Virus genome (UHGV): UHGV-0073209
Length of the DNA stretch: 25,153 nt
Origin: a virus
Direction: 5' to 3' (one strand)
Shown here: positions 6,205 to 7,391 of the stretch, piece by piece
How positions within the stretch are numbered: the stretch's first letter is position 1
How the letters are laid out: each line of letters starts with the position of its first letter
The notes under the pieces: model-generated
What the model saw: only the letters and a program-made list of their open reading frames with translations
What the model was told of the DNA's origin: nothing
Database searches by the model: none
Made by a program: the position numbers and the translations under genes

Positions 6205-6360
6205 ATGAACGAAGAAACCAATTACCGCCGCTTCTGGCGCAATACCGTGATCTGCTGCGCGCTCTGCTCACTGCTGTTTTGGCTCCCGATGGGCTGTCTC
6301 GCCTTTCGTGTTTTCTCTGTGGTGTGGGAGGCGCTGTGGTTGCTTATTACAACGAAATAG
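6205..6360 (+). CDS. Possible small hydrophobic protein (51 aa)
   Basis: ATG 6205 with GAGGT 7 nt upstream; translation MNEETNYRRFWRNTVICCALCSLLFWLPMGCLAFRVFSVVWEALWLLITTK. Overlaps the methylase start region, so speculative. Confidence 0.25.
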   Translation: MNEETNYRRFWRNTVICCALCSLLFWLPMGCLAFRVFSVVWEALWLLITTK

Positions 6361-7391
6361 ACCCTCACGCAGCACAGCACCTGCGCAACCTTATCGACGC
6401 CGGCCATATTGCGCCGGGCGTCGTTGACACCCGTTCAATTGAGGATGTAACCCCCAATGACCTTATCGGATTCAATCAGTGCCATTTCTTCGCCGGGATC
6501 GGCGGATGGTCGCTTGCCTTACGCCGCGCAGGATGGCCAGACAGTCGCCCGGCATGGACAGCATCATGCCCATGCCAGCCTTTCAGCGCGGCAGGCAAAG
6601 GACTTGGGTTTGCTGACGAGCGGCACTTATGGCCCTCCGCACATTGGCTTGTCGGCCAGCGCCGCCCTGTCGTGGTTTTTGGCGAGCAATCTGGCAGCGC
6701 TGACGCAGCGGACTGGATCGACCTTGTACAAGCTGACGTGGAAGCCCTGGGCTATGCCTTCGGGGCGGTTGCGTTTCCGTCTGCGAGCGTCGGCGCGCCG
6801 CACCAGAGAGACCGCGCTTATTGGGTGGCCGACGCCGGCCGCGAACGAGTTCGAACCGAAGGACTTGCAAAGGCTCTTGGAGAGAAGGGAGAAATTCGCG
6901 GCCAAGCATGGAAACAACGGGTTTGGCCTGACACTAGGGCAGGCGGTGCATCTGTTTGCGGGCTGGCCGACACCGACGGCAACGGACGGGAAAGGCGGTT
7001 ATCAGGGTGGACGAATCCGCAATGGGAAGCTATCGACGGACAGGCTAGATGTGGCTGCGCAGCTTGCGGGCTGGCCGACGCCGACCACGAGCAACGACCG
7101 CTCGCCATGTCCGCAAGAGGCTATGCGGACGTATCGCGACAATGGAACAAAGATTCAGAAGCGGCTTCAGGATGTAGCTGCGTTATGCGGCCCGGCCCGG
7201 TTAACGGCTTCTGGAGAGATGCTGATTGGCTCCACGGCCGGGATGGATGGTGGAGGCCAGTTAGACCCGGATCATTCCCGCTGGCTGATGGGATTCCCGC
7301 CAGAGTGGGAAGAGTGCGCGCCTACGGAAACGCTATCAACATTGAAGCGGCGGCAGCGTTCATAAAAGCGTATATGGCGGCGGAACAATGA
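6336..7391 (+). CDS. C5-cytosine DNA methyltransferase (phage Dcm-like); conserved motifs split across two reading frames
   Basis: In the annotated frame: YYNEIDPHAAQHLRNLI, FFAGIGG (motif I), PCQPFS (motif IV), VVVFGEQ (motif VI-like), GAPHQRDRAYWVA (motif VIII), AYGNAINIEAAAAFIKAY (motif X-like). Start taken as GTG 6336, 5 nt after GGGAGG; the track ORF starts at TTG 6279. The overlapping ORF 6457-7365 carries three GWPTP motifs and [10 protein letters not shown]. Confidence 0.7.
   Translation: MVAYYNEIDPHAAQHLRNLIDAGHIAPGVVDTRSIEDVTPNDLIGFNQCHFFAGIGGWSLALRRAGWPDSRPAWTASCPCQPFSAAGKGLGFADERHLWPSAHWLVGQRRPVVVFGEQSGSADAADWIDLVQADVEALGYAFGAVAFPSASVGAPHQRDRAYWVADAGRERVRTEGLAKALGEKGEIRGQAWKQRVWPDTRAGGASVCGLADTDGNGRERRLSGWTNPQWEAIDGQARCGCAACGLADADHEQRPLAMSARGYADVSRQWNKDSEAASGCSCVMRPGPVNGFWRDADWLHGRDGWWRPVRPGSFPLADGIPARVGRVRAYGNAINIEAAAAFIKAYMAAEQ

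Follow-up and report, generated by a model that had tools for sequence, protein, structure and literature searches.

Here we describe a gene for a C5-cytosine methyltransferase at positions 6336–7391 of the virus genome UHGV-0073209 (25,153 nt, referred to below as the window), together with a second open reading frame (ORF) that lies inside it, on the same strand, in the +1 frame. The locus likely encodes, by means of nested genes, a C5-methyltransferase of two subunits similar in type to M.EcoHK31I, with the frame-0 product (alpha) as the catalytic large domain and the +1 product (beta) as the target-recognition small domain. Throughout the homologues both frames are open, protein-level selection switches from one frame to the other, the family has an internal Shine–Dalgarno (SD) site and start codon for beta, and alpha is homologous to M.HhaI over motifs I–VIII. 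In C5-methylases, the large domain consists of motifs I–VIII and the motif X helix, and the small domain of the target-recognition domain (TRD) and motif IX (PMC5944983, PMC3404938). The nested arrangement would reproduce exactly this partition.

Alpha is homologous to M.HhaI up to motif VIII

The features of the gene in frame 0 are as follows:
6326–6331, + strand: SD-like site GGGAGG, 4 nt upstream of the GTG start at 6336
6336–7391, + strand: alpha ORF, frame 0, 351 amino acids, predicted large-domain subunit of a C5-cytosine methyltransferase
6486–6506, + strand: motif I FFAGIGG, frame 0
6570–6587, + strand: motif IV PCQPFS, frame 0
6669–6689, + strand: motif VI-like VVVFGEQ, frame 0
6792–6830, + strand: motif VIII GAPHQRDRAYWVA, frame 0
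6831–7202, + strand: A/G/R/D-rich linker without amino acid conservation, stop-free, located where a canonical enzyme has its TRD and motif IX
7203–7292, + strand: conserved C-terminus NGFWRDADW...FPLADG, frame 0
7320–7373, + strand: motif X AYGNAINIEAAAAFIKAY, frame 0, assigned by motif resemblance only

Homologous annotated proteins begin at the equivalent V/M-(V/A)-AYYNEID, matching the alpha start. Alpha matches Pfam PF00145 (E = 2.7e-11), and in hhalign its residues 37–172 align with residues 3–177 of M.HhaI (M.HhaI family; probability 98.5%, E = 3.5e-15). A residue-level alignment to M.HhaI made with phmmer spans motifs I and IV–VIII. Motifs I (FxGxG), IV (PCQ), VI and VIII (QxRxR) are present in order and are homologous to those of solved enzymes. 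Between motifs VIII and X of alpha, we detected neither a TRD nor a motif IX, as the matches in Pfam, NCBIfam, PADLOC and hhalign all end at motif VIII. The motif X-like YGNAINIEAAAAFI is invariant at Y-G-N across homologues, and no profile alignment extended to that segment.

The N-terminus of alpha (residues 3–40, positions 6342–6460), AYYNEIDPxAAQHLRNL...G.VDTRSIEDV, resembles motifs II/III (compare YSNEWDKYAQEVYEMNF...GDITQV in HhaI), and residues 33–75 of HhaI have no counterpart after alpha motif I in the hhalign alignment. The II/III-like sequence ahead of motif I may, by motif resemblance only, represent a local permutation of the S-adenosylmethionine (AdoMet)-binding motifs.

A long +1 frame is nested in the alpha gene

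The features assigned to the +1 frame and its start are:
6441–6445, + strand: SD-like site GAGGA, 11–12 nt upstream of the beta ATG at 6457
6445–6450, + strand: ATG-TAA, vestige of the usual beta start of the family, closed by a stop in this clade
6457–7365, + strand: beta ORF, +1 frame, 302 amino acids, wholly nested inside alpha
6457–6560, + strand: N-terminal ~35 residues of beta, open and with no visible amino acid constraint
6561–6830, + strand: doubly constrained overlap, beta ASLSARQAK..LLTSGTYG..GSTLYKLTWKPWAMPSGRLRFRLRASARRT over alpha motifs IV–VIII
6823–6960, 6961–7068 and 7069–7188, + strand: three WPTP modules of beta, proposed target-recognition modules
6823–6837, 6961–6975 and 7069–7083, + strand: GWPTP motifs of beta, +1 frame
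7189–7308, + strand: proposed end of the TRD and motif IX equivalent (7258–7308) of beta
7279–7308, + strand: WLMG.P motif of beta, +1 frame

Where the two proteins meet at motif VIII, alpha GLADTD and beta GWPTPT are the same bases read in two frames. We compared the longest +1 open stretch of the window gene (304 codons) with that of sequences in which the frame-0 codons had been synonymously shuffled; none of 1000 shuffles reached this length (mean 115, maximum 281). Seven lineages were tested in this way, and P was ≤ 0.001 in six of them, one being a Vibrio phage with a GC content of 51%. The longest open stretch of the +2 frame of the window gene is only 64 codons.

Beta has a common architecture across the family, with a free N-terminus, a conserved region over alpha motifs IV–VIII, shuffled WPTP modules and an invariant C-terminus. 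The number and type of the WPTP modules differ among homologues, from one to five or more. More than 5000 database proteins matched the beta family, and at E ≤ 1e-3 it comprised 11,181 cluster representatives at 50% identity. Beta corresponds to the PHROGs families phrog_1008 and phrog_31772, which are labelled 'DNA methyltransferase', and beta occurs in 220 phage records. The exact sequence of the window beta was absent from the contig index that we searched. Tryptic peptides predicted from the beta frame include LTWKPWAMPSGR and GGYQGGR.

The two-frame layout is conserved among relatives

Our main comparison set consisted of 80 IMG/VR loci (51–89% frame-0 amino acid identity), to which we added 11 further phage or contig loci. 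The +1 frame was open for 257–384 codons in all 80 IMG/VR loci, and the +2 frame reached only 38–125 codons where frame 0 was intact (78 loci). All of the 91 related loci inspected had beta lying inside a C5-methylase gene. The frame-0 product is collinear with annotated methylases of a Klebsiella plasmid-prophage (93.6% nucleotide identity), Klebsiella phage ST101-KPC2phi6.1 and Salmonella phage epsilon15. In their +1 frame, the same three genes contain an equally long open frame with GSTLYKLTWK.W.TPSG...RLRAS.RRTS..GWPTP, more W[PV]TP modules and the shared C-terminal motif. The layout was also present in E. coli Kagunavirus K1ind2 and K1H, Xanthomonas PhiXhv-28, Rhodobacter RcRios, Cylindrospermopsis Cr-LKS3, Vibrio Fayden, Erythrobacter R6L and a Logan contig.

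In Synechococcus phage Ssp-JY39 (L088:973–2088), we found the same nesting in a more canonical C5-methylase (GGGG motif I, IENV, QERER, GNGVVP). In this phage, the coding sequence (CDS) annotated as a 'hypothetical protein' corresponds to the beta-like frame (WPAPAARDHKG ... LNPLFVEWLMGWPPGWT), with no annotation of the methylase frame. More than one alpha subfamily therefore shows the arrangement, as this methylase is of the ENV type. Among the loci inspected, we found no single-frame relative with WPTP, motif IX and motif X in one chain; the cyanophage query gave few matches.

The comparison also bears on whether the split motifs of the window gene stem from sequencing or assembly indels, or from a decaying pseudogene. 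True frameshift variants do occur at a poly-G tract (see below) in two of the 80 related loci (L039 and L077) and in seven database proteins. However, the window has the intact layout of the family, which 78 of the 80 IMG/VR loci and all phage genomes that we checked share, a protein annotated in Klebsiella is 98% identical to alpha, and both frames are under purifying selection. We therefore regard an artefact or a pseudogene as highly improbable.

Selection switches between the two frames

Pairwise identity was computed by frame over 56 homologues:
Motifs IV–VIII: 0.755 in frame 0, 0.685 in +1, 0.595 in +2
Middle region (motif VIII to NGFW): 0.294 in frame 0, 0.396 in +1, 0.299 in +2
NGFW to GNA: 0.70 in frame 0, 0.63 in +1, 0.60 in +2

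In the middle region, the +1 identity exceeded that of frame 0 in 93% of the pairs, and the middle of alpha (6831–7202) is conserved no better than the unused frame. Analysis of the wobble phase in the window's own clade gave a matching picture along the gene. Frame-0 position 3 (corresponding to position 2 of beta codons) was the most variable over 6336–6605, both wobble phases were depressed over 6606–6785, frame-0 position 1 (the +1 wobble) was the most variable over 6876–7325, and frame-0 position 3 was again the most variable from 7326 onward. Selection acts on frame 0 up to ~6800, on the +1 frame from ~6876 to 7325 and on frame 0 afterwards.

We further tested stop codon avoidance by region in 76 genes. 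No frame-0 stop was present in the unconserved middle of any of the 76 genes (2.76 per gene expected from synonymous shuffling of the +1 frame), which argues that alpha is read straight through. Likewise, the ~138 codons of the +1 frame that overlap the catalytic domain of alpha were free of stops in 76 out of 76 genes (1.55 expected). Stops in the third frame matched the expectation (6.26 versus 6.12). A whole-gene synonymous shuffle was weak (+1 stops were observed outside beta) and was superseded by the region-specific and longest-ORF tests. The fraction of synonymous differences in alpha was 0.43–0.61 in codons 1–75 and 0.19–0.31 in codons 76–165 (6561–6830). This drop from 6561 points to a second protein-level constraint that starts ~85 codons before the end of motif VIII and is therefore not explicable by a shift at 6816.

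A long +1 ORF with its motifs could also be a by-product of GC-rich composition and alpha conservation, with no second product being made. The C5-methylase gene has a GC content of 60%, the shuffles already yield a mean +1 ORF of 115 codons and the N-terminal conservation of the +1 frame is partly forced by alpha. Such an origin is nevertheless scarcely credible, given that the +2 frame, with the same composition, contains ~15 stops per gene, that the +1 frame is more conserved exactly where alpha is unconserved and the wobble phase switches to +1, that synonymous sites of alpha are constrained and that the layout persists in the phage with 51% GC.

The original prediction, which described a methylase whose motifs are distributed over two frames, agrees with these data in its descriptive part. 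All motif positions that it gave were confirmed, both in frame 0 and in the +1 ORF, as was the openness of 6457–7365 for 302 codons, which is longer than expected by chance. That the middle of frame 0 resembles an out-of-frame translation, as it had noted, was borne out by the identities listed above, and the WPTP and WLMG.P motifs proved to be parts of a real conserved protein.

Its proposal of a frame change near 6816 and a return near 7320 leads to another explanation, programmed recoding. In this case, one chain would be made through a +1 shift at ~6816 and a −1 shift at ~7320, or a single +1 shift would give an alpha-N::beta-C protein alongside alpha. The conserved segments (I–VIII and, at the end, X from frame 0, with WPTP and IX from +1 between them) indeed follow the canonical motif order, and alpha-N::beta-C fusion proteins, from a sister allele, are present in databases. 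However, these fusions stem from length changes of a poly-G tract that is absent from the window allele. There is no slippery heptamer at 6800–6830 or 7300–7325, and no homopolymer longer than 5 in the window gene. The product of a double shift would have a GFP-to-GNA spacing of 12 residues, versus ~20 in M.HhaI, and would lose the conserved alpha residues ahead of motif X. Moreover, recoding requires neither that the +1 frame be open and selected ~85–120 codons upstream, nor that frame 0 be open in the middle, nor an SD site and an ATG for beta. We therefore consider recoding improbable. The break-points at ~6816 and ~7320 are real as switches of constraint, because frame identity and wobble phase switch there, but they are unlikely to be sites at which a single protein is recoded. 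The causes suggested in the original prediction (indels, a decaying pseudogene or recoding) are unsupported by the comparative data. Homologues are collinear with the single frame-0 product, an outcome that it had named as a refutation; the +1 motifs are nevertheless not coincidental.

The family has an internal start signal for beta

Codon choice at the ERSIEDV site of alpha is strongly biased among the 53 genes compared. The Arg codon is AGG in 28 and CGG in 17 of them (AGG accounts for only 6.7% gene-wide), Ser is AGY in 49/53 and Asp is GAT in 50/53. Through this bias, 45 of the 53 genes, in clades other than that of the window, contain GGAG-N9-ATG with the ATG in the +1 frame. The situation in the window clade, where this start is closed, is discussed below.

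WPTP modules and a poly-G tract vary between alleles

The first beta module (window 6838–6960) is wholly different between near-identical alleles, reading AANEFEPKDLQRLLERREKFAAKHGNNGFGLTLGQAVHLFAG in the window and IASNGRGAGNFNRQGGVNLQTAALLAG in CP052639 (L001, ~3640–3720). These and further beta modules are combined in differing orders among other homologues. The module differences and their reordering suggest cassette-like recombination between WPTP repeats.

Within the first WPTP module, the sister allele contains a G8 tract (L001:3680–3687, CP052639), and the same tract is found at ~2044–2051 in L004–L008, L010, L014–L016 and L021. L039 and L077 have G9 and are frameshifted. Three database proteins (P0111, P0112 and P0117) imply G7, G10 and G13 and have the N-terminal domain of alpha fused in frame to the C-terminal half of beta. 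The window allele has no hypermutable homopolymer and has a different module at that place. The length variants of the poly-G tract could be phase variation of the subunit architecture or homopolymer sequencing errors. In two further database proteins (P0229 and P0098), beta-frame sequence is joined to the C-terminal motif X segment of alpha in one frame; these may be additional frameshift variants or assembly artefacts.

Does beta carry motif IX?

We compared beta with the C-terminal sequence of M.HhaI, which we verified against the PDB. The best local alignment of a hidden Markov model of the beta C-terminus fell on HhaI motif IX (LHPRECARVMGYPDSY), with a score of 1.9 bits that was equalled or surpassed in 32 of 2000 shuffles. 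When the whole beta alignment was compared with an alignment of the HhaI family in hhalign, the motif IX pairing was the only match (E = 0.17, probability 0.35%). By eye, RLTASG of beta is located 20 residues upstream of its L-x-P; the TRD of HhaI has TLSAYG 23 residues upstream of HhaI's own L-x-P. A virtual frame-switched chimera searched against PDB sequences matched M.HhaI only over motifs I and IV–VIII, and PF00145 was not among the Pfam matches when short constructs joining beta-C and alpha-C were scanned.

Several findings weigh against a two-subunit methyltransferase. The motif IX match is right in position and not statistically significant (empirical P ~0.016), so that, with positions in agreement and weak statistics, beta is a candidate rather than an established carrier of this motif. 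AlphaFold2 predictions of beta alone (alignment of 45 sequences) and of the natural alpha-N::beta-C fusion P0111 (trimmed alignment of 32 rows) had a predicted local distance difference test score (pLDDT) of 42 and 43, respectively, too poor for a fold search in both cases. Beta had no match in Pfam, NCBIfam, PADLOC or PDB sequence searches. In the window clade, the usual beta ATG (alpha GAT-GTN) is directly followed by TAA, and TTGAGGATGTAACCCCCAATG or a one-base variant is common to all 19 members at this closed start. The next ATG is that at 6457, whose signal, only GAGGA ~11–12 nt upstream, is weaker. As published, M.EcoHK31I has its TRD in alpha and not in beta.

Beta could instead be a genuine nested gene that serves some purpose other than methylation, for example as a regulator or in anti-defence, overprinted on the fast-evolving variable region of an alpha that works alone. 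The failed structure predictions, the statistically weak motif IX resemblance and the lack of a significant Pfam, NCBIfam, PADLOC or PDB match all favour this alternative. Yet the VIII–X segment of alpha is unconserved, which would leave alpha alone without a conserved TRD or motif IX. Beta is nested in a C5-methylase in 91/91 loci, including the second (ENV-type) subfamily, and the best alignments between beta and HhaI fall on motif IX by two methods. In addition, natural in-frame alpha-N::beta-C fusions exist, and M.EcoHK31I is a direct precedent (PMC2836561). We consider an unrelated function of beta unlikely, although it is the strongest of the alternatives.

A model of the two-subunit enzyme

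In the two-subunit reading, a DNA C5-cytosine methyltransferase would be made of two polypeptides encoded by nested genes on the same strand. Alpha would supply the whole large domain, with the AdoMet-binding and catalytic motifs I–VIII and, through its C-terminal segment, motif X. These parts would be joined by the unconserved linker of ~120 residues, whose sequence would be dictated by the beta frame. Beta would be translated independently from its internal ribosome-binding site and ATG, and would provide the small domain in the form of the WPTP module array, for target recognition, and the motif IX equivalent. Its conserved region (~residues 35–120) probably holds it on alpha. As in M.EcoHK31I, one active site would be formed by a heterodimer of both chains. 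The predicted enzyme would be active, an orphan methylase encoded by a P2-like Klebsiella prophage, with the DNA of the phage or of its host as substrate.

Comparison with known methyltransferases

A preprint of 2020 still named no heterodimeric C5-methylases other than M.AquI and M.EcoHK31I (bioRxiv 10.1101/2020.03.09.983320), and M.EcoHK31I is the only precedent of a nested beta that we found. According to PMC2836561 and PMC3404938, the beta of this enzyme (from E. coli HK31, specificity YGGCCR) is encoded within the alpha gene in another frame, alpha has motifs I–VIII plus X, beta has motif IX, and both chains are required for activity. Methylases that are divided at this point, in nature or artificially, complement efficiently (PMC5944983). 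PMC2836561 and PMC3404938 also describe the first ~40 residues of M.EcoHK31I beta as dispensable; in PMC2836561, beta lacking at least 42 N-terminal residues is reported to lose in vitro activity through weaker association of the chains.

Compared by this published description, the window beta is similarly located wholly inside alpha in an alternative frame, overlapping ~86% of alpha, including catalytic motifs IV–VIII. The dispensable first ~40 residues there parallel the ~35 unconstrained residues here, which are followed by ~85 conserved ones. In contrast, M.EcoHK31I is described as belonging to a restriction-modification system, and its TRD is placed in alpha, whereas the window gene is an orphan prophage methylase in which the variable region of alpha is without amino acid selection and beta contains the presumed TRD in the form of its WPTP modules. 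M.EcoHK31I may belong to the same family as the window gene.

M.AquI (CYCGRG) is naturally split within the variable region as well, and its two polypeptides reconstitute one active site; its smaller subunit carries the remaining variable region together with motifs IX and X (PMC3404938). In the window, by contrast, motif X (7320–7373) belongs to the alpha frame and the look-alike of motif IX (7258–7308) to that of beta, which lies wholly inside alpha. Engineered split or circularly permuted M.SssI and M.MpeI have the same domain partition as we propose for the window locus, but they are laboratory constructs expressed from separate genes, whereas the partition in the window is natural and arises from overlapping frames. 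M.HhaI has all ten motifs in one frame and one chain; the window locus shares with it look-alikes of a GNA-type motif X and of an L-x-P-x5-[LV]-M-G-x-P motif IX, with the putative TRD and motif IX off-frame from I–VIII and X.

Multispecific C5-methyltransferases of Bacillus phages are summarized in PMC8936443 as phage-borne orphans with tandem recognition modules in the variable region. Beta of the window family likewise carries shuffled WPTP modules in variable number, but the Bacillus phage enzymes are single-chain. In lambda Rz/Rz1, as outlined in PMC9409062, a gene is likewise embedded in the +1 frame of the same strand and the products cooperate. Rz1 is short, however, whereas the nested ORF of the window has ~300 codons and runs over conserved catalytic motifs.

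Annotation and implications

Both nested CDSs are annotated in the GenBank records of K1ind2 (ORF29 and ORF28 'Mte8-like'), K1H (gp32 and gp33) and PhiXhv-28; 'Mte8-like protein' is an annotation label only. The searches that we made of the literature retrieved no description of this nested arrangement in phage methylases. Gene callers often keep beta and drop alpha, as in L092 and Cr-LKS3 g58 (also database proteins P0001–P0110 and P0119), so that many beta ORFs are present in databases as 'hypothetical' proteins of 250–480 amino acids without a Pfam match. The NCBI pipeline annotates alpha only.

What is new here most likely lies in the placement of recognition modules in a nested subunit, in an overlap that runs through catalytic motifs and in an arrangement far more widespread than the literature suggests. 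More tentatively, and with a little less than even confidence, we propose that these loci form a very large, essentially undescribed class of phage and prophage orphans that are obligate two-subunit C5-methyltransferases encoded by nested genes. This class would comprise at least 11,000 clusters at 50% identity and 220 sequenced phages, from enterobacteria to cyanobacteria, with alpha and beta sharing ~230–380 dual-coding codons, ~85 of them across motifs IV–VIII. The WPTP modules would be exchangeable and possibly multiple specificity determinants, and poly-G tracts would switch the architecture in some alleles. M.EcoHK31I would be the single studied member, its TRD having been mis-assigned to alpha.

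If the two-subunit reading is true, thousands of phage methylase loci are mis-annotated, as alpha ('DNA cytosine methyltransferase') or as beta ('hypothetical protein') and rarely as both, and specificity predictions and the cloning of methylase genes can fail because only one frame is annotated. The overlap would be among the longest and most widely conserved on the same strand in prokaryotic viruses, and two proteins selected over the same catalytic-motif codons would offer a natural test case for the evolution of overlapping genes. Target specificity would reside in a separate, modular and recombining subunit, which would be relevant to restriction evasion by phages and to host methylomes. 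The arrangement would also be a natural template for split methyltransferases in targeted methylation, for which M.EcoHK31I was chosen as a heterodimeric model in the single study that we found (PMC2836561).

Genomic context

The window is a P2-like Klebsiella prophage, 60% of which aligns with Klebsiella phage 3LV2017 at 87.8% identity. Within positions 6200–7500, the match to 3LV2017 is limited to the first 148 nt, indicating that the methylase gene is variable cargo. The genes next to it are:
5059–6021: Dam methylase (orphan Dam-family N6-adenine, PF02086), immediately upstream of the C5-methylase gene
6021–6194: ORF of 57 amino acids, beginning at the stop of the Dam methylase (6021)
7388–9871: gpA replication endonuclease (PF05840), downstream of alpha

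The prophage has two methylases in tandem, a Dam-family N6-adenine enzyme followed by the C5-cytosine enzyme. At the other end of the locus, the stop codon of alpha overlaps the start codon of gpA (ATGA, 7388–7391), which suggests translational coupling.

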